Shown: piece by piece, positions 9,456-62,424 of the stretch
How positions within the stretch are numbered: the first letter of the stretch is position 1
Layout: the number at the start of each line of letters is the position of its first letter
IMG/VR virus record: IMGVR_UViG_3300008516_000159
Length of the DNA stretch: 64,000 nucleotides
Strand: one strand, 5' to 3'
Origin: a virus
Notes under the pieces: model-generated
What the model was told of the DNA's origin: nothing
Database searches by the model: none
What the model saw: only the letters and a program-made list of their open reading frames with translations
Made by a program: the position numbers and the translations under genes

Positions 9456-10079
9456 TTAGATATCCAGATGGGGTAATACATTCTGTCTTACCAATAAACT
9501 CCTTGGACTATGGCCTACAAACACTCTGTTTTTTAAACCCTCAAACCTTCTGAATTCATTTATCAATTCCCGACCGAACCACTTTTGTTTATTGGCCTTG
9601 AAGTGAGACGGTGTCTCTACCTTCTGCCAGTATGAATACCATCGGTCTACGTATAGATCCTGTCCTAATAAAACAATCTTTTCAAAACCCATCCACAGAG
9701 CCAACTCGGTAGCATATATGGCAGAACTCCCGGCCCTGCGCAATCCTTCCGGACCGAAAAGTCTATTATCTCCCACAGGAAGTCTCTTGACTCTTATCCA
9801 TTTGTACTTGCTGAACTTTGGTAGCGGCGCAAAGTCCATCAAGTTGTAAATATTTTCTTCGTTACCGTTTCTGTCCCAGATCCAATAGTAGTCAGTCCAA
9901 AACGGGATATGAAATACTGATTTATTATAAGAGATGGTGTACTGATCTCTAATTTTGTTCCAATCAAAATCTCTTAATGACGCACCGGTACCGACGATAT
10001 AAACCGTTTTTCCTACGTGTTTATCTTTAAAATCTTCGAATTTCAGATTTTCGTTTAAATGCTTTTGCCTTAGCTCCAT
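9456..10079 (-). CDS. DUF115 / MptE-like (Maf / sialyltransferase-like Rossmann fold) protein
   Basis: GKTVYIVGTGASL, SSAIYATELALWMGFEKIVLLGQDL. Confidence 0.75.
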   Translation of the reverse strand: MELRQKHLNENLKFEDFKDKHVGKTVYIVGTGASLRDFDWNKIRDQYTISYNKSVFHIPFWTDYYWIWDRNGNEENIYNLMDFAPLPKFSKYKWIRVKRLPVGDNRLFGPEGLRRAGSSAIYATELALWMGFEKIVLLGQDLYVDRWYSYWQKVETPSHFKANKQKWFGRELINEFRRFEGLKNRVFVGHSPRSLLVRQNVLPHLDI

Positions 10080-11231
10080 TTATCATTTTTCCTCTTCGAA
10101 AATTGCCGCGAGCGTGAACCTTTTGTATTTATCGTGGAAGCCTTTCGGGGCTTTATCCTTAACAATCTCTTCGATATCCTTTTCTGTGCCCGCGGTCTTC
10201 CGCTTGCTCCCCCAACCGGACATTGGCGCGTTTGGGTCCCATTTAAAACCGGCCTTGAAGCCGGCGTACATGATACGTGTCAGCGCTACAGGATTTCTGT
10301 CGGATATCTTGGCTAAAAAGAAACGTTTATAATCCACACCAACCCGGGCGCCTTCTGAGTAATAGTAATACCTGTATCCCATTAGATTTCCGACACGACG
10401 CTCAGCTGCTCCACGGTCATTTCATCTACCAATAACTCGTCGCTTTCGTAGTGAAACTTCTTGATGTGTCCTGTGAGCGTGAATTTTGGATTTTTATAAA
10501 GCGTGACCCACTTGTCATCCTTTTTGGTGCGGATTACAACTTCATTGTTTATCATTTCTAACTTGGTTTCCATTTTTTATTTATCCCCTGAATCAGACGG
10601 AGTCTCCTTTATATACAGAAAAGTGTGTGGAGAAAAGTGAAAGATCTCACCGAGATGATTTTCTATCGATACAATATTATCCTTGTTATCGACGGACTTG
10701 ACTGCCGAAACTTTGACAATCTCTTGATTGATCAGCTTAACCGTGATATCATTCATTATACTTTCCTATCGGTAAATTCAATCTCGATACAAATCTTCAC
10801 ACGAGCCTCGATACTGTTTGCGATGAGATGCTCTAGATTTTTCCTTTCCCACATCAAGTATTGAGCCATCTTCTTTCTCACGAACATTTCAGCAGGCCCA
10901 ATTTCATCGAACTTATGTTCCTCCGTCAGCTTCGCCGCCTTTTTCATTAATTGTTCTTTTTCTTTTATCATTATTATCTCCAGCGTATAAAGGTTTATTT
11001 AAGATAAGCATATCGTGATCGGCAGTAAACAGATAATGGCCGCTGCCGATGCGCTCGCATTTGTATGTTAACAAAATCATGTTGAGCAGATCGCGCGCGT
11101 CTTCCACATACGATTTGTCGCCTCTCTGAAAGTAAGTTGTCAGGTTGAGAGAGACAACCTCGAGCATATCTTTGATCGTAAAATCAAAGAGTTCGCTTTC
11201 TCTTGGACCCAGTAAATCAGGGATGTTTCCC

Positions 11232-15606: not shown

Positions 15607-16605
15607 TTACACATTAAGAAATTTTGCTTCTTCGCGGGTGATGTAATCTTCGTGCTCTTCTTCCTCACGATAGTTGGTAACTCTATCAATGGCTTTACCC
15701 TTGTATTTATCGATCACCTTGTCGATACTCAAACCTGCCGCAACAGTTATATAGAGAATAGTATCATAGTTGTTTCGAATAATACCCGAAAGGATCCTCG
15801 CACTCTTCGCTCTGCCACTGATCTTTTTGGTTACTTCTACAAGTTTGTTGGCTTCGGCATCAACGTCTGCGTTCTTAATCTTACTGTAGACTGAACGGGC
15901 GATTAAAACGTTCTTTGCTTCGTTGATTCTGCCGTAGCTGATAAACTTGACAGCTTCTTCTTCCAGATTTGAGAAAGAAACATTAACGAAGCCGCCGGCA
16001 TAAGAAATCGAAGTTGTTTCAAGATGGTCGATTGACAGCGGGCTATATAAGCTTGGATCATTAAGCTCGTCGTTCATATTGACGACGCACTTGACGCTGC
16101 CGATGATGTGTTCATTGATATTGGAGAAATCGCGTTCCGCAAACTTGCCAATATCTTCGTTGGAGAACAGCATAATCGAGCACTTGTCCTGAAACTCATT
16201 GAACCTCTGCATCGCTCTGACAGCATTAGCTGTGGCTGGAATCGACTCTGAGAGGAATGGGAGAATGCCGACAAAAAGGATCTTGTTTCTTTGGCGCAAC
16301 AGAGGCATTAGAACCGACTTAATCGAAGAACTGCCGCTGCCACCTCCAAGGGCCGCAAATATAACAACCTTTGTCCTTACGTAGGGCTCAAGTACTTTTT
16401 CTACTTCTTCTTTGTTCTCGCCCCAAATCTTAAGGCCTAGATTATAATTACGACCGGATCCGTCTCTGGAAAGTTCGATGTTGTTGGTTAGTCCAACTTC
16501 ATCTTCGAGTGCGGTGTTAAATGTGATAATTTCATCATCTTTGCTCTTAAAGAGCTCGGCGAGTCGCGAGCCGGTTTGCCCGCAACCCAATAATAAGCGC
16601 TTCAT
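15607..16605 (-). CDS. tubulin/FtsZ-family GTPase (PhuZ/TubZ-like)
   Basis: LLGCGQTGSRL (G1 loop), AALGGGSGSS signature, GILPF..E...A..NA, acidic C-terminal tail. Confidence 0.85.
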   Translation of the reverse strand: MKRLLLGCGQTGSRLAELFKSKDDEIITFNTALEDEVGLTNNIELSRDGSGRNYNLGLKIWGENKEEVEKVLEPYVRTKVVIFAALGGGSGSSSIKSVLMPLLRQRNKILFVGILPFLSESIPATANAVRAMQRFNEFQDKCSIMLFSNEDIGKFAERDFSNINEHIIGSVKCVVNMNDELNDPSLYSPLSIDHLETTSISYAGGFVNVSFSNLEEEAVKFISYGRINEAKNVLIARSVYSKIKNADVDAEANKLVEVTKKISGRAKSARILSGIIRNNYDTILYITVAAGLSIDKVIDKYKGKAIDRVTNYREEEEHEDYITREEAKFLNV

Positions 16606-21135: not shown

Positions 21136-22110
21136 TTAATCTTCTTTCTCATTCAAGCTCTTTTTGAGAGTACGGATGAGATACTCATTAGCCCAGTTGA
21201 AATCAGGCTTTTTTCGGATTTCGGTTTGAGCGTAAGCCAGTTCAACTTCTTTGTTGTATTCGTCATACATCCGCATAAGTTCGTCAAATGAAACCTCTTT
21301 GTTGCGGATACGGATAATGTCTTCACGAGCCTTGCCTACAATTGGAAAGTCAATTCGGCCTTTCTCAAGTAGCTGACGACCTTCATTGAGCAGGCGAATT
21401 AGATGATAAGCAAACTTAACATCGTAACTGTCGCGACCTTCACCGGTGAAGCCCAGCTCTTTGACTCTCCAACCATACATCCCATATTCACTCTTAATCC
21501 TGTTATATATATGCTCCAGAGGCATGCCCTTGTGAAAGTGCTCCGTATTGCCCTTTTCGCCTTTGTAGAACTTGAGAATATGATTAAGTTCTGAGGCTTC
21601 GAGTTCGGTAATCGGACGATCTTCAACAATCTCTTTCAGATATTTCAGACCAACACCAAGAGAACGAAACCTCTCGCGTTTCACAACCAGATGTTTGCGC
21701 TGGGAATAAGCATACCCAGTAAAAGTGTGGAACACACGGGTGCTGATAATCTTATCATAGTTGTCCATGATTTCCTTGAACTCAGGTTCAAGAAGCAGGA
21801 TGTCCTCGGGTTTAGCGAAAAGCACCTCAACTATATTGGGGTTATTCTGCATCACCAACTTGAGAAACTTTTTGATATTATAAGCTTTGTCATCAACGTC
21901 GCTCTTGACGTTCCGATGTTGAGCACTGGATTTTTTAGTAGATCTGTCGATTTCATCGACGTTCTTGAGGCCAAGGATATACTCCTCATCGGGAATGAAA
22001 ACACCCAGATAGTCTTCATCGGATTCAGGAGTATTGAGACCGTAGAGGTGCGAACCTATTCTGGAACGGAATATGTACTTGTGAACTTTTACTTGATGTT
22101 CTTGAGGCAT
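21136..22110 (-). CDS. Pol-beta-superfamily nucleotidyltransferase (RlaP/YcgL-like)
   Basis: GSHLYGLNTPESDEDYLGVF, NPNIVEVLF, YDVKFAYHLIRLL. Confidence 0.85.
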   Translation of the reverse strand: MPQEHQVKVHKYIFRSRIGSHLYGLNTPESDEDYLGVFIPDEEYILGLKNVDEIDRSTKKSSAQHRNVKSDVDDKAYNIKKFLKLVMQNNPNIVEVLFAKPEDILLLEPEFKEIMDNYDKIISTRVFHTFTGYAYSQRKHLVVKRERFRSLGVGLKYLKEIVEDRPITELEASELNHILKFYKGEKGNTEHFHKGMPLEHIYNRIKSEYGMYGWRVKELGFTGEGRDSYDVKFAYHLIRLLNEGRQLLEKGRIDFPIVGKAREDIIRIRNKEVSFDELMRMYDEYNKEVELAYAQTEIRKKPDFNWANEYLIRTLKKSLNEKED

Positions 22111-25359: not shown

Positions 25360-27468
25360 TCATATCTCAGGCACCATTATTTTGTTTATAATGAGATCAC
25401 CATCCCGCATCTTGCCCATTTTGAAAACCAAAACTTTATTTTTGATCAGGTTACGAGCACTTTCGTTAAATTGATGCGCAAACAACGGATAACGCCTTAC
25501 TCCGTTCTCATCCCTAATCGATACAAAAGCCATCATGTTGCCGTTTCTATCGCGCTTTCTTGTTACATCAGTTATAATGCCGATCAAAGCCCTACTATCA
25601 AGCATGCTTTTCAGCTGTGCTATCTCATCGGCCTTTTCTTCATACAGTATCATTGATATATCCAATGTCAATAAGTCCTGTAATAACTCCAGCTTTTCCT
25701 GCTTGTTCCAATCTGTTCCTTCCCTGGTCTTGATGAACTGTTCAAATGGAACTTTTGCGCCCTTCTTGCGCCACTCATCATAGTTAGTATACAGCGTCCT
25801 GCGATTGCCGTAAAGCTTATCAAAAGCGCCCGCTTGTATCAAGCTGTCAAGAACCCTCTTGTTTACTTTCGTGCCGGTTTTGTGCTCCTTCAATTTGGTG
25901 AAAAAGTCAGTAATACTCTCATGAGGCGCGTGCTCGGAAATCCATTTAGCGGGAACCACGCCGCAGTTCTTGACATGGCTCAATCCATAAATGACGGTCT
26001 TGTCGTCTATAATGCTAAAGTGCGTTTTACTTTTGTTTACGTCCGGATATAATACTTCTATACCAAGCTGCTTACATTCAGCAGTCAGCCTATCCACAGG
26101 GGTTTTGTCAGAGTTCAACGAGGCGCACATAAACTCAACAGGATAATGGACCTTGAGCCACGCGGTGTAATACGCAATGGTCGCATACGATAAAGAGTGG
26201 CTGCGGTTGAACTGGTAACCGGTCTGTTTGATAAGATATTCCCACAGCAGCCTCGTCTCTTTCTGATTTCTGTTTTTCTTTTGACAGCCCTCGAAGAACT
26301 CCTGCTCCCACTTCTTTTTACCCTTGGTGTCATTCTTGAACTTGGAGTGCCATTTTTCCATATAGCGCCTGAGTGAGTCCGCGCGGCCCAAACTAATTCC
26401 GGATGCCATGTGCGCAATGTTGATGGTTTGTTCCTGGAACACCAATAGACCCAAAGTAGGTTTTAATACCTCTTCTAGAACAGGATGCGCATACTTGATC
26501 TCCTCTTCGCCGTGTCTGCGTTTGATGTAGTTGTTTATAATAGGAATAGAACCTGGCCTGAATAAAGCATTCATGATTACAATATCCTCAAATATTTTAG
26601 GTTTCAGCTTTTGTAAATAACCTTTCATCGATGGACTTTCAAACTGAAACACAGAGGTGGTCAGGCCTTTGCCAAATAATTTATAAACATCTGGAACCTC
26701 GAAGTTTATATTATGTATGTCTATTTCTTTTCCATGCCTCTCCTTTATAAAGTCCAGCGTATCATGAATAATTTTGAGAGTAGACAGTCCGAGTATGTCA
26801 AGCTTCAACAGTTTCATTTCTGCTATTGACTCACCATCAAACTCAGTCAAAAGCATGTCATCATCCCTGTTGTACTGACATGGAATATATTTTTGGACAG
26901 CCTTGTCCGCTATGATGATGGCGGCTGCGTGTTTGCCATAGTTACGCATCTGTCCTAACAGTTTCTCAGCAAACTTGAAGATTTCAGGATACTGGTGATA
27001 AGCGCTGCTTTCGTTCCAGTTAGTTTCGTCTATGTTCTTGGATATAGCAATAGCTTTCTGGGCGGGTATACCATGTATTCTCGCGGAATCCTGAAAAGCT
27101 GACTTGATGGAATAAGTAATGACGTTACACACCTGAGCGACGTTCGTCTGACCAAATCTTCGCTTGATGTAATCAATGACATCACCTCTGCGGGCATCTT
27201 CAAAATCAATGTCTATATCAGGAGCTTTGCCAGATATCGTCAATTTTTCAGGTTCGTCATTTATGGGATCATGATGAATGTATCCCAACAAATACCAAAT
27301 CAGGATATTGGGATGCGGGTCGGTTCCGTTATCAACATCTTTCAAAAGGTTGGTGTGAGTTATGATCTCATATTTCTTGAACTCTTTTAGTTCATAATCC
27401 AATCGCTGGCGATGCTTCTCGTCGTTTATGCCTTTTTCTTTCAACAGGCGGTATAGTTTTTCTTTCAT
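25360..27468 (-). CDS. dnaE: DNA polymerase III alpha, C-terminal part (catalytic palm, fingers, HhH, OB)
   Basis: APDIDIDF, GKHAAAIII, KLDILGL, VFQFES, GYQFNRSH, OB fold. No PHP domain and no GRGS. Confidence 0.95.
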   Translation of the reverse strand: MKEKLYRLLKEKGINDEKHRQRLDYELKEFKKYEIITHTNLLKDVDNGTDPHPNILIWYLLGYIHHDPINDEPEKLTISGKAPDIDIDFEDARRGDVIDYIKRRFGQTNVAQVCNVITYSIKSAFQDSARIHGIPAQKAIAISKNIDETNWNESSAYHQYPEIFKFAEKLLGQMRNYGKHAAAIIIADKAVQKYIPCQYNRDDDMLLTEFDGESIAEMKLLKLDILGLSTLKIIHDTLDFIKERHGKEIDIHNINFEVPDVYKLFGKGLTTSVFQFESPSMKGYLQKLKPKIFEDIVIMNALFRPGSIPIINNYIKRRHGEEEIKYAHPVLEEVLKPTLGLLVFQEQTINIAHMASGISLGRADSLRRYMEKWHSKFKNDTKGKKKWEQEFFEGCQKKNRNQKETRLLWEYLIKQTGYQFNRSHSLSYATIAYYTAWLKVHYPVEFMCASLNSDKTPVDRLTAECKQLGIEVLYPDVNKSKTHFSIIDDKTVIYGLSHVKNCGVVPAKWISEHAPHESITDFFTKLKEHKTGTKVNKRVLDSLIQAGAFDKLYGNRRTLYTNYDEWRKKGAKVPFEQFIKTREGTDWNKQEKLELLQDLLTLDISMILYEEKADEIAQLKSMLDSRALIGIITDVTRKRDRNGNMMAFVSIRDENGVRRYPLFAHQFNESARNLIKNKVLVFKMGKMRDGDLIINKIMVPEI

Positions 27469-27483
27469 ATTGTTATGTATGTC

Positions 27484-29490
27484 TTATGATTTAGTAACGT
27501 CATGTAATACCTTTGCGAGAGTCTCGAGCGTAAACGGTTTCTGTATAACATCCTTGAAACCATAATCTTTGTAGTTGCTCATAGCATTGGATGTAGAATA
27601 GCCGCTTGAAACAATAGCCTTGACCTGCTTGTCTATTTCCAGGAGCCTCTTTATGGTCTCAATACCATCCATACCCCCAGGCATAGTAAGATCTATAACA
27701 ACGGCATCAAAGTGCTTATCTATCATGGAACCCTTGTAGGTCTCTAATGCCGCCTCACCGCACGACACCACGGTAACAGTGTAGCCCAAGTCTTCTATTA
27801 GATCCTTGGCTATCTCTCTAACCGGCGCCTGATCATCTACAAAGAGCACGTTGCCTCGGCCATTTAGGTGTGCATCCAAATCTTCTTCTTTTATTTCTTC
27901 TAAAGTCGTGGGTAAATACAAAAAGAATGTGGAGCCTTTGCCTAACTCGGAATCAACCCACACGCAGCCTTCGTGATTTTTGATAACAGAATAGGCGGTG
28001 GCCAATCCAAGCCCGCTTCCTGCGTGTTTAGTTGTGAAATAGGGATCAAATATTTTGTTGAGGTGTTCCTTTGGTATGCCTATGCCTTTGTCAGCAATCG
28101 TAACTTCCAAATATGCACCCGGCTTTAGATGAGCATCGCAAGGTACGCCCATGGGCGCCTTCACCTCTCTCGCCGCTAATTTTATGACGCCGCCTGTGGG
28201 CATGGATTGCATAGCGTTTATCAATATGTTTTGTATAACCTGAGATATTTGACCAGGATCAATGTGAGCGTTAGGTATGTCTTCTGGTATGTTGTATTCT
28301 ATTTTAGAGTTACAACCACTAGTGGTAAAAGTGGTTGTCTCCATTATAATTTCCTTTATGGATACTGTTCGACGAACTGGCAGACCTCCACTGGAGAATG
28401 TCAACAACTGCTGCGTCAGACTTTTAGCGCGCTTGCAGGCCTTTAGTGCCTGTACAAGTCTGTTTATTACTTCATTTTCCAGTTTTAGATCTGGCTCGTC
28501 GAGAACCTGGTCAGATTTTACATGTCTGCGGCTATGCATCAAAGCCAGTTCGACATTGCCACTGATAGCCGTCAGTATGTTATTGAAATCATGGGCAATA
28601 CCACCGGCCATTACGCCAACTGCTTCCAGTTTTTGGGATTTAGATAACTCCAACTCGGTCTTTCTCTGGAGTGTAATATCTCTAAACACCGCGACAGCAC
28701 CGACAATATCGCCTTCTTTATTTTTGATTGGCGCTGCTGTATTATCGATAAGCCGGCTTTTGCCTCGTTTAGATATAAGAACTACATCTTTTTTAAGTTC
28801 AATAATCTTACCTGTCTCTAGAGCCTTTTGTAACGGGTTAGGGGCCATTGCGTTGGTCTTTTCATCAAACAAATGAATGATGGCATCAAAAGGCTTTCCT
28901 ATCACTTCCTTCTGTTTCCAACCAAGTATGTGTTCCGCCATGCGGTTTAGTATAGTTATTTCGCCTTTGGCACCTACAGCGACAACACCATCGCTGATGC
29001 TCTTCAATGCAATATTTAATCGTTCGGTTTCTTCGGCCAAGGCTCGCTGCGCCTTTACCCTTTCGGTAATGTTGCGATGCTGCACTATAGCATTGACAAC
29101 TTTGTTCTTAATTATAATAGGCGTGATAGTTACATCTAACGCGAGGGCGCTGTGCATCGTAAGGTGTGCGTGTTTTATCTCTGCAGGAGTATAATCTAAC
29201 ATAAAATGCACAGGTTGTTTTTCATAGAAAACCTTATCTATGAGAGGAATCAAATTCTCTTTGTGAAACTCTTCATCCTTGAATAGATTATATACTCCAA
29301 CTACTTGTTCATCCGTGATATCAAACAGATCGCGGTTGACCTGGTTCTGCATAATCATTGTGCCCTTTTCGTCCGACAACCACATACTGTTTGGGCTGTT
29401 TTGTATGATTTTGCCGCAGAACTTATTTATATCTTCTTTTGTGATTTTGTTATTAGTATTTAGTAACAGGTCGTTTTTTCTTTTTCTCAT
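27484..29490 (-). CDS. hybrid sensor histidine kinase PAS-PAS-HisKA-HATPase-REC
   Basis: GIAHDFNNIL (H-box), NILINAMQ, DKGIGI, FDPYFTTK, GSGLGL, VDDQ...IDLTMPG...KPF. Confidence 0.95.
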   Translation of the reverse strand: MRKRKNDLLLNTNNKITKEDINKFCGKIIQNSPNSMWLSDEKGTMIMQNQVNRDLFDITDEQVVGVYNLFKDEEFHKENLIPLIDKVFYEKQPVHFMLDYTPAEIKHAHLTMHSALALDVTITPIIIKNKVVNAIVQHRNITERVKAQRALAEETERLNIALKSISDGVVAVGAKGEITILNRMAEHILGWKQKEVIGKPFDAIIHLFDEKTNAMAPNPLQKALETGKIIELKKDVVLISKRGKSRLIDNTAAPIKNKEGDIVGAVAVFRDITLQRKTELELSKSQKLEAVGVMAGGIAHDFNNILTAISGNVELALMHSRRHVKSDQVLDEPDLKLENEVINRLVQALKACKRAKSLTQQLLTFSSGGLPVRRTVSIKEIIMETTTFTTSGCNSKIEYNIPEDIPNAHIDPGQISQVIQNILINAMQSMPTGGVIKLAAREVKAPMGVPCDAHLKPGAYLEVTIADKGIGIPKEHLNKIFDPYFTTKHAGSGLGLATAYSVIKNHEGCVWVDSELGKGSTFFLYLPTTLEEIKEEDLDAHLNGRGNVLFVDDQAPVREIAKDLIEDLGYTVTVVSCGEAALETYKGSMIDKHFDAVVIDLTMPGGMDGIETIKRLLEIDKQVKAIVSSGYSTSNAMSNYKDYGFKDVIQKPFTLETLAKVLHDVTKS

Positions 29491-29984
29491 GATATTTCAG
29501 AACACGGCACACCATTCTCCATTAGAAATGTTGAGCCGCTTATATCTCTGTCATACGGCTTGTTGAAATATACTTCTTTCACCCCAGCTTGTAATATTAG
29601 TTTTGAGCATGGCATGCATGGGGAATAAGAAATATACAGAACAGAACCTTGAGTTCGCACGCCGTTTTTGGCGGCATATATTAGAGCGTTTGCTTCGGCA
29701 TGAAGCTCGTTCCGTTCGGAAAATATTCTATGTTCTTCTCTGAACAATTCGGAGTTTAGATAATCTTCGAAGGATTTGAATTCATCATAATAATTTAATT
29801 TGTAAACTAGCTTAAAATGTTCTTCGCAATGCTTCTGACCTTCAGGAACACCATTGTATCCCATGGATATTATACGGTTATCCCTAACCAAAAGACCACC
29901 GACTTTAATACGGGCACATGTGCTTCGACTTGCTACAATCTCGGTAATCTCTGAAAATACCTTTTTCCAATCCGGTCTGCTCAT
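29487..29984 (-). CDS. dCMP deaminase (ComEB family)
   Basis: RSTC.R.KVG, GYNG, HAEANAL, SPCMPC. Start trimmed to MSRPDW; ATGA overlap with the kinase gene. Confidence 0.95.
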   Translation of the reverse strand: MSRPDWKKVFSEITEIVASRSTCARIKVGGLLVRDNRIISMGYNGVPEGQKHCEEHFKLVYKLNYYDEFKSFEDYLNSELFREEHRIFSERNELHAEANALIYAAKNGVRTQGSVLYISYSPCMPCSKLILQAGVKEVYFNKPYDRDISGSTFLMENGVPCSEIS

Positions 29985-31962
29985 GTTATTTTCCTTTGCT
30001 TTTGGTGATTTCGACTTTAAACTTCCGACAGTATACAACCGTAAACTCAGACAGTTGTCCACATTCTTTTTTATGCCGGCATTGCCTACACTTTTTTGCT
30101 AACAGCTCATTTGGCGTTTCAGTTCGCTTTTTGCCCATCTGATAAATCCTCCGAAATCAACATCATGGTCGTGTGGAAAATGCGTATCCTCAGAATGCTC
30201 AGCCCAATCTATAGCACATTTTAAATCGTAATCACCATAATGAATGTCTTTTTTCAAACCCCAATTTTCACCATTACAGTAATCTCTATAAGCCATTAAC
30301 ATGACTCTACAAATCGCCATTTTCTGCTTCCTACACTATAACTCTTTACATTAGATATTGAATTACTCCGTCGACTTGAAATGCGCAGGAATTAATATAC
30401 GGACTGAGATAAACTGGAGCTTTATTAAAGTTACCTACCTGGTGTACGCCAATACTTGACGCAACTTTAATTGGCTCGAATTCATCGAACTCCACCATAG
30501 CCTTATAGCCCTCTAAACTAAGAATGATCCAATTCATTTTTAAAAACACCTTCGAAAGAGAATCTCCTATTACATTTCTTACAGAGACAAGAAATCGTGA
30601 GTCTATTCTGATCTACTCCTGTAAAATATGCAACTAAAGTTGTCTCCTCAGACTGTTCTATATCTTTACCATCACAATCTACATAAGCACACTCTTCTAT
30701 TCTGATCATTTACTTTCCGCCTTCTATTCAGGTTCGATTACGACTTGTTCCTCGTGCTTAAACTCAAAAGCAAAGCCACACGTTACGCATTCTGCCCTGT
30801 AACCGGCCGTGAAACAGCCATCATCGGCCAGATAGAACTCATAATCCTCACGCAATGATTCATCAAGCTTTATCGGCTCTCTTGATTCCAACAACAAGGC
30901 TTCATATGCCTCTGGTGTCAATTTTCCATAGCCAGCTCTTGCTTTTTTTGAAAGATCCTCTGCTTTACTTTCTGCCATCTTAAGACACCTTGGGCATGTT
31001 GTCCAATTATCTGCACTCATTTTTCCTCCTTTAGTTTACGTATACAACGGCGCAACCCATAAAACTCGAGTTTACATTCGCAGCAATAAAACAGGCATTT
31101 TCCTTTGCCCCATTCAACCGCGGTTACTGTGTGTCCTTGGTGCTCGCTGTATCGCGCTATATATTTATATTTCATCTTTTGTTTGTCATGTCAATCCCCA
31201 AGGCCATAAACACACCACCAAAAAAGCATCCACCTATAGACAACCAGAGGGCCAGCATCGAGTGGCCCGTTTCTATAAGAGTTGGATCTTTGAGAAAAAC
31301 CCATAATGATATAAATCCAGACCCGCCAAACACGCCACACAGTAGGCAAAGTGGCATAAATATCATTGCCCAATTAATCTTTTCCATCTCACCTTTCCTT
31401 TAGTTCACTAAAAGAAATGTGCTTTTCTTTTAATGCTTCGAGCCTTATTAAAGCTCTATCTGCCGATTTATTATTGCCTGTCCTGTAAGCTGTGCATAAA
31501 TCCTTATAGATGCTAACTTCTTTTTCGAGTCTTTGGATGCAAATGTGGTGTTCTTCTCTCTCTGATAACCACAATCCTTCTTCAGCGGTCCGTAATTCAT
31601 CGTTCTCCAACTGAAGCTTTTGAATACAAGCTTCTGCCTGCTGCAACGCTCCTTCAAGCGCTTGTGCATCTACGCCCGATAAGGGTTTCCGTTGTTTACA
31701 TGCCGCTCGTATTGTCAATTTGTTCATCTTTTTTTTACCTTCAGAGCTCTTTGGATAACGGGGTCGGGAAATCCTCGCCACGAAGAATCTTCTCCATTGT
31801 CTCGACGATGTTTACGCCAATGTGAAATAACACCTAGGTGAATAGTGTTTCTTCTTCCTTCTACAACTTTTCCACATTCCGAACATGTCCAAGTATCTCT
31901 GCACCTACTTTCTTGCAGTCCCACCTTATATTTCCTTATCTTTTTTCAAGGTCTGCTCCATC

Positions 31963-32349: not shown

Positions 32350-33570
32350 TTATCCTAAGAATTTTATTGTTTTACCGCCTAATCTTTCTGGATTTAAGAA
32401 GCGCTCAAACTGTAACTTGTGTACAATAGGATCAACATCTGTTATGTTCAGGGCATAGGCTATAAGAGATCCTGCTGCGCTTCCCCTGCCAGGTCCTACA
32501 TAAATATTTTCAGACTTGGCCCAGCCAACTATATCTGCCACTACTAAGAAATAAGAAGAAAATCCTGCGCTATAGATGATCTTGAGTTCATAAGCCAATC
32601 TCATCATGTAGGTGTCATTTCGCAAGCATCTCCTATCCAGACCCTCTACGCACTTTTTGCGGAGTATCTCATCAAGGTCGGCGCCCTCGAACTCTGGAAT
32701 AGGAGGCACGATATAATCATGCTGCTTAATATCAAACACCTCTATTTTATCGGCTATCTTTACGGTCGTATCACACCACCCCTCAATGTCCTTTTTATCG
32801 TAGCCGGTGTTTATGCCTTCTCTGATGATTTCTTCTCTTGAGTGCAAATATATATTGTCTTCGTCGAATTGAAGCCCTTTGTCGTCGCCTACTTTACCGC
32901 CAGTATTGACCAACAGCAGTTTGGCGTGATCGTCTTTCTGATCTGCCGTTATATAGTGGGCATCAGCGGTGATAATGGCTGGAACCTTCAACATTTTCCA
33001 GAACTTGTATAGTTTTATTTCTATGGCTTTTAATCTCTCGGTCTGATGTGGTTGAAACTCTATATAAAAGTCATCGCCAAATACATCAAGATACCAATCT
33101 AGGTTCCTCTTGGCCGCTTTTATATCATTGTTTATCAACATGCTTGTTACATCGTTGGCAAGACAGGCGGTTGTGGCTATTATATTTTTACTGTACGCCT
33201 TCAAGGTCTCTCTATCTATACGCGGTCTTTTATAAAAACCATAACGATGACCAATATATTGCATCTGCATTATGTTACGATAACCTTCGATGTTTTTCGC
33301 CAACAGTACAACATGAAAACGTTTTTCTCCCTTTGGTTTGACTTTCAGATCATCAACCATATAGGCCTCAACACCTATCAACGGTTTGATCTTGTATTTC
33401 TCGGCAAGGTGCCAGAACTCATAAACTCCTGACATTGTTCCATGATCGGTTATAGCTAAGGCAGGCTGCCTTAGTTCTTCTGCTACATACTTAAGGCGTG
33501 CTTTTTTCGTCCCTAGCCCATCGAGTGCACTAGAATCGGTGTGTACGTGAAGATTTACGAAGTTATCCAT
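32350..33570 (-). CDS. dnaE: DNA polymerase III alpha, N-terminal part (PHP domain plus palm start)
   Basis: HVHT, ITDHG, GVEAY, DAHY, GPGRGSAAGSL, FERFLNPER, then ends before PDIDID. Confidence 0.95.
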   Translation of the reverse strand: MDNFVNLHVHTDSSALDGLGTKKARLKYVAEELRQPALAITDHGTMSGVYEFWHLAEKYKIKPLIGVEAYMVDDLKVKPKGEKRFHVVLLAKNIEGYRNIMQMQYIGHRYGFYKRPRIDRETLKAYSKNIIATTACLANDVTSMLINNDIKAAKRNLDWYLDVFGDDFYIEFQPHQTERLKAIEIKLYKFWKMLKVPAIITADAHYITADQKDDHAKLLLVNTGGKVGDDKGLQFDEDNIYLHSREEIIREGINTGYDKKDIEGWCDTTVKIADKIEVFDIKQHDYIVPPIPEFEGADLDEILRKKCVEGLDRRCLRNDTYMMRLAYELKIIYSAGFSSYFLVVADIVGWAKSENIYVGPGRGSAAGSLIAYALNITDVDPIVHKLQFERFLNPERLGGKTIKFLG

Positions 33571-34720: not shown

Positions 34721-35344
34721 ATGACTAGAGAAGAGTTTCTGTCCATCGAACATCCATCTATAGAAGAGTACCGCTATTCAGACGTTGTGGTGTACTTTTT
34801 GTGGAATAAACCAAGCAAAAGTAGTATCACCTTGAAAGGCTCAGTATGGATCTACACGGATGGCAACAAAAGCATTGCACTAAAGAACGAAGTATTAAAG
34901 GAGCTTAAAGATCTTGAAGCCGCGGCTTTTTCTATAAGAAAAAAGAATTTAATATTGTTAAACCCCGGTAAAAAATATGTTATAGGTCGACTTTTCGGTG
35001 AAAAGGTGCGACAGGAATAAAATATGAAATCAGCTGACACCATAAGCGATGTCGCAGTCCCGTTTCTTGTTAAAAGCAAAAGCGGTCAAGGCTCTACAAA
35101 AAGCTGGGAATACATATACGTAACAGAGGTCTACGATCGATTAGCCAAGAAAGAAAGTAAAGTCGGGGCTGTTGTGAGACTAATGCGGTTCGGTAGTAAC
35201 GTTGGCGTATTAATAGAAAAGGGTAAAGAAGCTCAATACATGTGGTCACATATATTTTCACCGAGGGCGCAACAGGTTGAGATGAAACGAGGTAAAAAAG
35301 ATCTACTTGTTGACCTTTTCACTTTTCCTGACAGAATGATTTAA
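34721..35344 (+). CDS. two small proteins with the shared C-terminal helix (34721-35020, 35024-35344)
   Basis: End in KKYVIGRLFG and KKDLLVDLFT. Confidence 0.6.
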
Positions 35345-35773
35345 ATTTTTTCTTAACTCCTTCTTCATGCCCAACTGGATTTCCTTGTTGGTCTCGTGTT
35401 CAATTACTTCATAATTATGATCAAAAAACTTGATGTTTTTTACCCAATCATTACGGCTGTCATCTGAGCTTATCATTTTTGCTATATCGGAGCGCTTCTT
35501 TTCCTTGCGCATGTTGTCCATTACATCGCGACGAATGACTTGATAGAAATAAGAAAACGCATACTTGTTTTTGGTGGGATCATACTTGTCCAGCTTTTTC
35601 CAGGAAAGTATAACAGCGCTCTGAATATAGTCATCGCGCTTGGAGTAGGCGATGTCAAAGTGGTGAGTTATCTGGCTGCCCATTTCATAAAAGTTGCTGA
35701 GCAGTTGCTGCATCTTCTCCGGATCCCTTCGGTCATTATAAAGCTTTTCCATTTCCTTCTTGTCAATGTTCAT
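35303..35773 (-). CDS. T4 gp55-like / region-2-only RNA polymerase sigma factor
   Basis: DDYIQSAVILSWKKLDKYDPTKNKYAFSYFYQVIRR...MRKEKK. Confidence 0.75.
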   Translation of the reverse strand: MNIDKKEMEKLYNDRRDPEKMQQLLSNFYEMGSQITHHFDIAYSKRDDYIQSAVILSWKKLDKYDPTKNKYAFSYFYQVIRRDVMDNMRKEKKRSDIAKMISSDDSRNDWVKNIKFFDHNYEVIEHETNKEIQLGMKKELRKNLNHSVRKSEKVNK

Positions 35774-49923: not shown

Positions 49924-49945
49924 TCAATATTCCATGACATATAAT

Positions 49946-50297
49946 TGGAGCCGGGGAGGTTCGAACTCCCGTCCCTCGAATATTCACTTTGAAACACTAC
50001 ATGCTTAGCCCTGCTGCGGGATTCGGTTATTAATTCACAGGACGAAACGTCATAACCTAGCCTAACTTGTTTTTCGCTTTTGAATCGGTATTGGCTTCGG
50101 TTCAAATAGCATAGTCTCCGTTTCTGACGCCCTATTTCTCACCAGAGACAATAAGAAATAGAACGGCTGCTTAATTAAGCAGCAAGTGCAAGTGTTTCGT
50201 TAGCAACTATAGTTTGAATGGTCTTTTAAAGAGCCTTACCAAACTCTGCATGCGTCTCAAAGATCATCATCCCAGGTCGAATCCAAATGTCGGCCCC
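49946..50297 (-). ncRNA. ssrA: tmRNA, tag (A)ANETLALAA
   Basis: 5' GGGGCCG and 3' CGGCTCCA acceptor stem with G3:U70. T-arm GGGAG-TTCGAAC-CTCCC. Tag ORF at 50175-50204, preceded by ATAGTT and followed by a stem. Confidence 0.97.
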
Positions 50298-56121: not shown

Positions 56122-56486
56122 AATTAGATCGAATATTAAAAGAAAGCGGAATGATACAAGAATCCAGAATAGGTCAGGTTGTCGCGCAATGGAAGGCTGG
56201 CAAACTTGTGCCGGGAAAAATACTACAACAGATAGGTTTGGTTCAGGATGATACAACTGGTCAGCCGTTGACTGGCACGCAGGTTAAGTTGAGAATGGTG
56301 CAGGCTGGTATGAAAGAAAACGATCCTTTAATGCCTGAAATAAAACAGGCTGCTGATAGGGCTTTTGTTAGCAGCGCTGGTAGAGAGGAATATAAACAGG
56401 AAAGAGAAAAAGAACAAAGAAGGATCGGCACCACAATAAAGGGTGCGGCTAAGAGGCAATCAAGACCATTTTTTCAAGAGACCTAA
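56118..56486 (+). CDS. possible virion-internal protein
   Basis: MKLDRILKESGMIQES, containing [IL]-x-E motifs. Confidence 0.4.
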   Translation: MKLDRILKESGMIQESRIGQVVAQWKAGKLVPGKILQQIGLVQDDTTGQPLTGTQVKLRMVQAGMKENDPLMPEIKQAADRAFVSSAGREEYKQEREKEQRRIGTTIKGAAKRQSRPFFQET

Positions 56487-56863
56487 GATATCATGAAAAA
56501 CGGTCTATCTAGCCAATGTTGGATTCTGTATATATGAAAGAATATTGAAAAATAAAGCTTGCGCAAAATAGGATTACTTTTAGAGCCCATTATGGAATCA
56601 ACCTTCCTGTGGGCTCTCATTTGTAAACCACAATAAGTATCCATCCCAAGACCCATTGAGCCTAGTTTTTCAATCTTGGCTGATACATCAGGGTCATTTT
56701 CGCGGCCCTTGTGCTGGTCGAGGTAATCGCACACTTTATCAGACGGCTTGCCTACTATACGATTCCAAATCTTGTCTACTATTTTGCCAAACAGTTTGAA
56801 ACACATATCGCTTCTCCTTGTTATTATAATATCACACACTCCTCTTTTTGTAAAGCATTAATT

Positions 56864-56935
56864 AGCCCCTACTCGGATTCGAACCGAGATAAGATGGTTT
56901 TAGAAACCACCGCCTAACCATTCGGCCATAGGGAC
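56864..56935 (-). tRNA. amber suppressor tRNA (anticodon CUA), Cys-like body, U73
   Basis: GTCCCTA/TAGGGGC acceptor, GTGGT-TTCTAAA-ACCAT anticodon arm, CTCGG-TTCGAAT-CCGAG T-arm. No encoded CCA. Confidence 0.9.
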
Positions 56936-56939
56936 ACAA

Positions 56940-56957
56940 GCCGGTATCTCTACCGGC
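56940..56957 (-). other. perfect 7-bp GNRA hairpin immediately 5' of the suppressor tRNA
   Basis: GCCGGTA-GAGA-TACCGGC, between a CATATATA motif and the tRNA. Confidence 0.7.
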
Positions 56958-56959
56958 TA

Positions 56960-56967
56960 TATATATG
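56960..56967 (-). promoter_or_regulatory. CATATATA putative promoter of the suppressor tRNA
   Basis: Recurrent motif, 25 nt before the tRNA 5' end. Confidence 0.55.
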
Positions 56968-57995
56968 TTACCTCTTCAGTTCCCAAAGACGAATTTTACC
57001 ATCGGTTTCGCCCTTGATAAACATACCGCTTTTGCGTACAGCCTGACACTGCCCTATATTCATACGTTTGACTTCATCGCCTAGCACAAAATCCATGGTT
57101 AATTGAGACCACCGACCTGAGGAAAGATCTTCTCTTATGTGCCAACCATTCTGGATCATTCTGATAACAGAGATCGTGCTGTGCTCGGTTGAATCTTCAA
57201 CAAACTTTTCGACTTCCTTGGCTACTTTCTCGAAGCTTTTGATATAATCATTAATCTTGCTTTTGAGGGTATTGCCTTCGTAGCCTGGGAAATCCAGTCG
57301 TATCTTCGAGTAATCTCCATCATGGTCCCATATCCAACTTTGATAGTCCATGGTTATAATATCCACCTTGCTGCCCCTCGTAGATATCACAAGCTCGTCG
57401 CCTTCAATATACTGATACGCGCCATCCCAGTAGCCAGGCTTTTGCTCCAAATTGAATATCGCACCACCTGGCACCCTGACATAATCTTCGGGGCTTTCTT
57501 TTTGCAATAGCGCAATAAGTTCTTTTACTTTCATACCGTTAACAACTCCTTCGCGGCACACTTGCGAGCTCTAGGGGGAACATAAGGCGCTTCTGCCCAA
57601 ACGATAACTGTTTGTCCTAACTCATTGTGGGTCGTCTTATAACCCCAATTCTTGAGGGTGGTGTGGATATCATTTTCATCGGGCATGTTGTGCTTAGGTT
57701 GTTCAATCTCGTCGCGTGTTCGGCCACGAATTAAGCAATACGCAATGTGCTGATGACGATATAAATGGCTCAAATTCTTGGGACTGCTTTTGTACATCGC
57801 TTCCATTATGTTCCAGTACGCCTCTTTGAGTCTATCCCAAGCGCCGCGGTGGCGCATCTCTCGGGGTAGACCGCAAACACGCTGAAATCTGGAAAGCGCT
57901 CTTTGTTTTTCTTTGTAAATTGGTTTTGCTTCTTTGATTTGGTGAGCGAGCTCTTTGAGCTCTTCTTTGATTTGTAGATATTCTTTCTTTGTCAT
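56968..57995 (-). CDS. two hypothetical proteins (57531-57995, 56968-57561) downstream of the amber leader
   Basis: 154-aa and 197-aa ORFs; the first carries HIAYCLIRGR..EIEQP. Confidence 0.7.
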
Positions 57996-58106
57996 TGTCT
58001 TTCTCCTATTTGATTTTAATTGGCGTGAATAGGAGCGACAATTACGGTGGTAATAAAGCCTATGTCATTCTGCTTTCCTCCTTTTTGTTACATGTTATTA
58101 TATATG
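57993..58106 (-). promoter_or_regulatory. leader with an amber-containing uORF and an SD/AUG-sequestering hairpin
   Basis: CATATATA, then AGGAGG, ATG ACA TAG GCT TTA TTA CCA CCG TAA, then TTGTC-G-CTCCTATT pairing with AATAGGAG-AAA-GACAA(TG). Confidence 0.65.
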
Positions 58107-60975: not shown

Positions 60976-61174
60976 ATTATAACTCCCAGGACATTATTGT
61001 GTCTGTCGATAGTCCTCATCTGTTTTTAGGAAAACAGCAAGTCCAAATTACTGTCACAAGAATTGCAATACCCGTAGCGCCAAGCAGTAGTTGATTAAAC
61101 AATGATATCATTTCACTGCTTATATCCACATTGTCCTCTTGCTTTGTTATCTGTGTTTCTTTTCTTAAAATATC

Positions 61175-62350: not shown

Positions 62351-62424
62351 AGGCCAGGACAGGATTCGGACCTGCATCATCTCGGGTTGCAACCGAGCGC
62401 CTAAGCCATTTCAGCCACCTGGCC
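62351..62424 (-). tRNA. tRNA-Cys(GCA)
   Basis: CTCGG-TTGCAAC-CCGAG anticodon arm; U73; T-loop TCCGAAT. Confidence 0.9.

Follow-up and report, generated by a model that had tools for sequence, protein, structure and literature searches.

A phage from marine sediment that keeps TAG as a stop codon carries an intact tRNA gene with a CUA anticodon, set on a body of cysteine type. The gene lies in the window, the whole 64-kb stretch analysed here, with which a contig of 191,071 bp begins. Judged from its sequence, it is an intact, canonical elongator-type tRNA with a UAG-reading anticodon. Its ancestry is very probably that of a tRNA-Cys, and the combination of a Cys-type suppressor body with an unrecoded phage appears to be new. 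The reading that we favour, at about even confidence, is that of a weakly charged, probably cysteine-inserting amber suppressor that would allow partial read-through of UAG without a change of the genetic code.

A canonical tRNA with a UAG-reading anticodon

ARAGORN calls eight RNA genes in the 64-kb window, one of them a 72-nt tRNA with anticodon CUA.

56864-56935, minus strand: tRNA(CUA), putative amber suppressor (ARAGORN, Rfam, identical copies in assemblies L002 and L004)

Its score against Rfam RF00005 is 57.4 bits (gathering score, 29), in the middle of the range of the seven tRNAs that Rfam places in the window (39.6-65.9). The acceptor stem, GUCCCUA/UAGGGGC, forms seven pairs (G1-C72, U2-G71, C3-G70 and four more), and the discriminator base is U73. 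The D stem has three pairs and a G13-A22 mismatch, with a 7-nt D loop carrying G18G19. Five pairs make up the anticodon stem; a variable loop of 5 nt follows, and the T loop reads UUCGAAU. In the anticodon loop UUCUAAA (U33, A37, A38), the run A36-A37-A38 after U33 follows the pattern of tRNAs that decode U-starting codons. No CCA end is encoded. The ARAGORN call, the Rfam score and the reading of the sequence thus bear out the canonical cloverleaf, CUA anticodon, G1-C72 pair and U73 given in a preliminary description of this DNA.

All 72 nt and their flanks are identical in two further assemblies, L002 and L004, so that the CUA anticodon is no one-off assembly error. The anticodon is therefore real, as that description had taken it to be, and a sequencing or assembly error is ruled out. 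In one run the assembly breaks beside the tRNA, L001 ending near 56760 and L004 starting near 56825. Almost no reads from four runs map to the stretch.

ARAGORN labels the tRNA ‘Pyl’, a name taken from the anticodon alone. The hallmarks of tRNA-Pyl are a 3-nt variable loop, a 6-bp anticodon stem and a small D loop without G18G19. Since the core of the present tRNA is canonical, with 5 nt in the variable loop, 5 bp in the anticodon stem and GG in a D loop of 7 nt, a tRNA-Pyl identity is ruled out. A tRNA-Leu(UAG) on the opposite strand was also rejected, the T and D loops fitting the minus strand only; in IMG/VR, the anticodon-arm pattern matches only such opposite-strand tRNA-Leu(UAG) genes.

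The body of the tRNA is of cysteine type

Inside the phage, the closest tRNA to the suppressor is an ordinary tRNA-Cys.

62351-62424, minus strand: the phage's tRNA-Cys(GCA) (ARAGORN), nearest in-phage relative of the suppressor, 66% identity

The two tRNA-Gln of the phage are 50% and 60% identical to the suppressor. The likeness of its D arm to that of the tRNA-Cys, first noted by eye, was confirmed on comparison, and the Cys-like body as a whole now stands more firmly, on blastn, D-arm matches and a classifier. With blastn against 50,697 phage genomes, all seven matches covering at least 80% of the suppressor are annotated as tRNA-Cys, at 74-76% identity and with weak E-values; they come from six records of the Lactococcus P087 group and from Streptomyces phage Kenrey. 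The sole tRNA in IMG/VR that shares the 19-nt D arm is a tRNA-Cys(GCA), which over positions 7-43 differs from the suppressor only at 27, 34, 35 and 43. In 185,579 species genomes, the 18-nt D arm of the suppressor is carried by 11 tRNAs: seven called Cys, two more whose loop is compatible with GCA, and a single tRNA each of His and Gly.

The classifier compares position profiles, ignores the anticodon columns and was trained without the tRNAs fetched for their likeness to the suppressor. Cys comes out on top with +1.0, followed by Arg with -4.9, which gives a margin of 5.9 nats; in leave-one-out runs, margins of at least 5 were correct in 67 of 85 cases, a reliability of about 79%. Gln falls below the top six families. 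As a control, a crAss-like CUA tRNA (cr7_1, U1-A72) was classified as Gln. U73 occurs in nine of nine phage tRNA-Cys examined, and also in most Gly and Thr tRNAs and a good share of Ser-called ones. Overall, the suppressor has the U73 and the Cys-closest body of a tRNA-Cys and lacks its GCA anticodon. The departure from a Cys tRNA appears to lie mainly at anticodon positions 34 and 35, with U73, D arm and anticodon stem of Cys type.

In about 500 tRNAs from related and other large phages, no second Cys-like CUA tRNA was found. Across 50 records, a Cys-type covariance model recovered many tRNA-Cys(GCA) and no Cys-like CUA tRNA, and IMG/VR holds no exact copy of the suppressor. Among 315 tRNAs from 106 loci of large environmental phages there are two other CUA tRNAs, both with different bodies and in locally unrecoded DNA.

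L115:7633-7707 and L090:16788-16859: other CUA tRNAs, in large IMG/VR phages, with non-Cys bodies

Two relatives linked through the RNA ligase, L065 and L066, have tRNA islands, L065 with a tmRNA; within 20 kb no CUA tRNA was found in either.

TAG is an ordinary stop codon of the phage

Coding coverage of the window is 87.6% under table 11 and 88.7% with TAG as a sense codon, a gain of 1.1 points. This comparison agrees with the earlier view of the region as non-recoded. Stop usage in the window is 79 TAA, 32 TGA and 18 TAG, TAG making up about 14%. The preliminary description had TAG ending the dut, SLT and RNA ligase genes at sensible places. The SLT gene is TAG-terminated, and for the other two the claim could be made sharper: the dUTPase profile match covers positions 2-129 of 129 and stops at the last residue before the TAG, and the TAG-terminated RNA ligase has 222 aa, 80 relatives being mostly 218-231 aa long. 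Its read-through product would have 275 aa, a length reached by none of the 80. In a PD-(D/E)XK protein of the contig part L012, TAG also falls at the end of the profile. The long genes said to have no in-frame TAG proved open under table 11, among them those for DnaE, a histidine kinase, DHODH and DnaB.

The phage DNA read amounts to about 107 of 191 kb, the terminase, portal and capsid genes lying in the remaining ~85 kb or so. The late region L016, the last 19.9 kb of a second, JGI contig, has 86% coverage under table 11. It encodes a gp13-like adaptor, an M23 lysin-like gene, RtcB, a radical-SAM gene and three tail-fibre-like genes, including ones of 421 and 405 aa. TAG ends three of its 33 genes and is internal in no long gene. 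The tRNA island L012 also reads under table 11, and in L019 a tail-fibre gene of 676 aa, which includes a Collar domain, is likewise unrecoded. In G001, the closest relative in IMG/VR, the genes follow the order of those in L016 and the proteins are 27-68% identical; the late half of G001 (108.6 kb) has 95.8% coverage under table 11, with ORFs of up to 2901 aa. In-frame TAG at sense positions, the mark of code 15, was not found in the 107 of 191 kb, and no TAG was found at Cys positions of Cys-rich ORFs or miniproteins.

The 107 of 191 kb read, together with the late half of G001, support the view that the suppressor tRNA is not part of wholesale TAG recoding. The absence of wholesale recoding proposed at the outset therefore extends to the late genes as far as they were read (L016, L019 and G001, all standard code), and recoded structural genes in the rest of the phage are unlikely. 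Since TAG is a normal stop in this phage, the suppressor is very probably not a code-15 (TAG=Gln) device.

A promoter-like motif and a hairpin precede the tRNA

The DNA around the tRNA contains the following features.

56960-56967, minus strand: CATATATA, promoter-like motif that abuts the TAA of orf188, the gene upstream
56939-56958, minus strand: 8-bp hairpin AGCCGGUA-GAGA-UACCGGCU, read from the sequence and present in the minimum-energy fold
56826-56854, minus strand: sigma-70-like promoter TTTACA-N17-TATTAT (consensus scan, 10 of 12 matches, TG extension)
56968-57534, minus strand: orf188, directly upstream of the tRNA, with no Pfam, PHROG or Atlas assignment
35303-35773, minus strand: gp55-like late sigma factor (phrog_234 ‘late sigma transcription factor’, 1.1e-5; Sigma70_r2, 6.5e-6)

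The motif CATATATA stands 25 nt ahead of the tRNA. The window has 22 copies of it where 2.6 +/- 1.7 are expected, and this excess strengthens the earlier proposal that the tRNA has a promoter-like motif of its own. The main coding strand carries 19 of the copies, most of them 10-60 nt ahead of start codons, and the late region of the phage and a related phage have the motif too. No other tRNA of the window is directly preceded by a copy. The gp55-like sigma factor is possibly the reader of CATATATA as a -10-only promoter. Its own gene is TAG-terminated, and read-through would add 14 residues.

The GAGA-loop hairpin ends 3 nt before position 1 of the tRNA. It exists as noted in the preliminary description and is part of the minimum-energy fold; it may be a 5' leader of the tRNA or, just as well, the structure at the 3' end of the upstream mRNA. 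The sigma-70-like promoter sits just past the tRNA, before a TAG-ended gene at 56483-56839. A code-change module was rejected, as the long ORFs of the window include neither a synthetase nor a release factor. The two neighbour genes have no Pfam, PHROG or Atlas assignment.

Distances beyond TAG codons look random

The median distance to the next in-frame stop is 11 codons after TAG, 13 after TAA and 7 after TGA. Programmed C-terminal extension is ruled out, since the stretches after TAG look random, and for the same reason there is no sign that the genome is adapted to suppression. Among single candidates, the 52-codon extension after the RNA ligase TAG is absent from every relative. A 73-aa ORF and the dCMP deaminase (29487-30320), considered as one read-through gene, are instead two genes. 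The gap behind the RNA ligase (61016-61174, minus strand) holds an ATG-started ORF of 31 codons, hydrophobic, membrane-helix-like and in frame with the ligase.

Gene content of the phage

The phage is T4-like and 191 kb in size. Its RNA genes include more than 40 tRNAs, a tmRNA and a GOLLD RNA; at least 24 of the tRNAs lie past the right end of the window. The second assembly, JGI Ga0309839_1000076, has 148,677 bp, and its coordinates are shifted by 43,147 bases against those of the window. No near DNA matches were found in INPHARED and no close relatives by DnaE in IMG/VR. GC content is 40%. The replication set in the window is T4-like and comprises a split DnaE, DnaB, a primase-like Toprim protein, gp32, dUTPase, dCMP deaminase, a DHODH fusion, a hybrid histidine kinase, a tubulin-like protein, an RNA ligase, an RlaP-like enzyme and the tmRNA. 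Synthetase or release factor genes were not found among the parts scanned, the long ORFs of the window.

DnaE, the DNA polymerase III alpha subunit, is split between two minus-strand genes about 5 kb apart, at 32350-33570 and 25360-27468, one encoding the PHP domain together with the beginning of the NTPase domain, the other the remainder. Between them lie a 668-aa hybrid histidine kinase/response regulator, the dCMP deaminase and small ORFs. The same interval includes some 400 nt (30320-30720) with coding-strand stops in all frames, which could be a non-coding RNA or a gene remnant. The tubulin/FtsZ-like protein is encoded at 15607-16605 (minus strand). Enzymes of an RNA-repair kit comprise the RlaP-like nucleotidyltransferase (21136-22110, minus strand), RtcB (L016:7354-8478) and the RNA ligase.

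Several of the structured RNAs are of interest in their own right. The tmRNA (49943-50297, minus strand; Rfam, 140.9 bits) has the tag ANETLALAA, and that of a distant relative (L065:13176-13530) the tag AENTLAQAA; a link between tmRNA and stop-codon read-through is only a thought. About 18.6 kb past the window end, the GOLLD RNA (RF02032, L012:242-721) scores 155.7 bits against a cut-off of 150 and contains a tRNA at 324-398 to which ARAGORN gives a 4-base anticodon. At L012, about 9727-9981, no Rfam match to an RNase P RNA reached the gathering score. Four tRNAs with Leu anticodons (UAG, CAG, UAA and CAA; L012:15455-16747) are 74-78 nt long and have no long variable arm like that of bacterial tRNA-Leu; only tRNA-Leu(GAG) reaches 87 nt. 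Mismatch of anticodon and body may be common in the tRNA set of this phage.

Charging and the function of the suppressor

Mischarging by GlnRS or LysRS through U35 is known for many amber suppressors. As GCA, a major CysRS determinant, is absent here, Gln or Lys mischarging of the phage tRNA is possible. Two of the three anticodon bases of a tRNA-Cys are lost, for which reason poor charging by CysRS is expected, and the tRNA may be near inert or carry another amino acid. The major Cys determinants are U73 and GCA (PMC9976931). When E. coli tRNA-Cys is given a CUA anticodon, the CysRS of the cell still charges it, the change of G34 costing more than 1000-fold in vitro (PMC13449415), which makes weak Cys charging of the phage suppressor plausible. 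This E. coli tRNA-Cys(CUA) also suppresses UAG (Normanly et al. 1986, cited in PMC5389517).

The earlier interpretation is borne out in part, namely for the absence of wholesale recoding, the Cys-like body and the promoter-like motif, whereas insertion of Cys and a role in regulation are proposals. The weakly charged, probably Cys-inserting suppressor could work as follows. Transcription would start at CATATATA, possibly through the phage's gp55-like sigma factor. RNase P would cut off the hairpin leader and a CCA-adding enzyme would finish the 3' end. Host CysRS would then charge the tRNA inefficiently by way of U73, some Gln or Lys mischarging via U35 being possible, and the charged tRNA would compete with release factor 1, giving partial UAG read-through during infection.

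Less likely is a near-inert paralog: a copy of tRNA-Cys that drifted to CUA and has little or no effect on translation, being tolerated because CysRS hardly charges it. The weight of the anticodon as a CysRS determinant (PMC9976931, PMC13449415) speaks for such a history, as do the other mismatches between anticodon and body, namely the four Leu-anticodon tRNAs of 74-78 nt without a long arm, the unadapted TAG stops and the lack of a similar tRNA in the other phages searched. However, the stems are intact, the Rfam score is mid-range and the anticodon loop suits a reader of UAG. An identity of 66% to the phage tRNA-Cys indicates no recent copy, and yet there is no decay. The tRNA also has its own copy of the promoter-like CATATATA, and GCA can become CUA only by two changes, via a harmful GUA or CCA on a Cys body.

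Doubtful, to a slightly greater degree, is a gene-specific switch in which the tRNA would read a UAG in a short leader of the transcription unit that it ends. The elements concerned are these.

58042-58068, minus strand: leader ORF, candidate target, AUG-ACA-UAG-GCU-UUA-UUA-CCA-CCG-UAA (from the sequence; eight codons, UAG being codon 3)
57994-58042, minus strand: hairpin from the UAA of the leader (minimum-energy fold, -19.6 kcal/mol, z -2.5)
57531-57995, minus strand: orf154, first gene of the unit ending with the suppressor tRNA, with no Pfam or PHROG assignment

The leader is preceded by CATATATA (58099-58106) and then by a GGAGG Shine-Dalgarno site, and the 3' arm of the hairpin covers the Shine-Dalgarno site of orf154 and the AU of its start codon. 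By decoding the UAG at codon 3, the tRNA would let the ribosome melt the hairpin and free the orf154 ribosome-binding site. Read-through would run five codons further, to a UAA abutting the hairpin, and a stop at the UAG would fall short. The leader has a strong Shine-Dalgarno site and CATATATA upstream, belongs to the same unit 1.1 kb upstream of the tRNA, and the hairpin that buries the orf154 Shine-Dalgarno site and start is the minimum-energy fold, with a z of -2.5. In addition, the CUA tRNA of L115 has an ORF with UAG at codon 6 and a phage-family match 3 kb downstream (10776-11156; phrog_3668 ‘hydrolase’, 9e-5, a weak match). An identification of this ORF as PTH2 was rejected, Pfam not recognising it and the PHROG matches being weak. 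In the DNA examined no homologue of a Pth2-like gene was found, and the UAG of the present phage is part of a tiny leader, not of a conserved protein gene. Against a switch, the window has a single SD-ATG-NNN-TAG match where 0.83 are expected, which is the level of chance, and 53 of 100 shuffles have at least one; orf154 itself has no known function, its family comprising about 200 small proteins of unassigned function with one 90% relative (P0131). Because the pattern is expected by chance and the orf154 family has no assigned function, we keep the switch as a doubtful reading. Still more improbable is the larger proposition that the tRNA is the first natural UAG-to-Cys suppressor, that it is the key to the leader/orf154 switch, and that this is one variant of a broader and so far undescribed class in which suppressor tRNAs gate genes of standard-code phages.

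A code-15-type tRNA, with TAG as a sense codon of late genes within the ~85 kb outside the part read, is very unlikely. In recoded phages the early and replication regions usually keep the standard code and TAGs cluster in structural and lysis genes (bioRxiv 10.1101/2021.08.26.457843), and the capsid, portal and terminase genes do lie outside the part read. On the other side, the neck, tail-fibre and lysin-like genes are unrecoded, and so is the nearest relative throughout its 108-kb late half. Stops of the TAG type show no depletion, GC content at 40% is not low, and the body with G1-C72 and U73 is not of Gln type, the crAss-like suppressor having U1-A72. The least probable reading is a role apart from decoding, either as a decoy or replacement target for a host defence that cleaves tRNAs or in another tRNA-like function: the RNA-repair kit (RNA ligase, RtcB and RlaP-like nucleotidyltransferase) and the very large tRNA set would fit a conflict over tRNAs, but nothing ties the suppressor to a nuclease, and a stop anticodon is no known nuclease target.

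The phage offers a clean case of an intact amber suppressor tRNA where TAG is demonstrably kept as a stop. Until now, nearly all links drawn for phage suppressor tRNAs have been to TAG=Gln or TGA=Trp recoding. The case raises the question of purpose: the tRNA might operate a specific switch, harm host translation, buffer against nonsense mutations or be an initial move towards recoding. A further question is whether a natural tRNA-Cys(CUA) can be charged by an ordinary CysRS. Tools for amber suppression with cysteine or selenocysteine could take this natural tRNA as their starting point; if inert, it would exemplify anticodon drift within oversized phage tRNA sets.

Comparison with known suppressor tRNAs

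The recoding seen in phages by Borges et al. is only TAG=Gln and TGA=Trp, and a suppressor in a standard-code phage was read there as a step toward recoding (bioRxiv 10.1101/2021.08.26.457843). The tRNA described here resembles the code-15 suppressors of crAss-like, Lak, Garnet, Topaz and other phages (bioRxiv 10.1101/2021.08.26.457843, PMC9523058) in being a phage CUA tRNA, with a host presumably of standard code, and in lying in an early, replication-type region. Unlike in those phages, TAG is an ordinary stop (~14%), GC content is 40%, no in-frame TAG was found in 107 kb, late genes included, and the parts scanned yielded neither a release factor nor a synthetase gene. The body is also different, of Cys type with G1-C72 and U73, whereas crAss cr7_1 has U1-A72 and is classified as Gln.

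The TGA suppressor of the Agate phage (bioRxiv 10.1101/2021.08.26.457843) is likewise a suppressor tRNA within a standard-code genome. However, it is an opal suppressor in a lineage of low GC with depleted TGA stops and recoded sister phages; here TAG is undepleted and no recoded relative is known. The engineered E. coli tRNA-Cys(CUA) (Normanly et al. 1986, cited in PMC5389517; PMC13449415) shares the Cys body, U73 and the CUA anticodon; it is laboratory-made and has G15-G48, whereas the phage tRNA is natural and has A15 and U48. A natural parallel is a deltaproteobacterial Cys-type opal-suppressor-like tRNA (Mukai et al., PMC5389517), which also joins Cys identity elements to a stop anticodon. 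That tRNA reads UGA and has an 8/4 fold of tRNA-Sec-like shape, in contrast to the phage tRNA, which would read UAG from an ordinary 7/5 cloverleaf.
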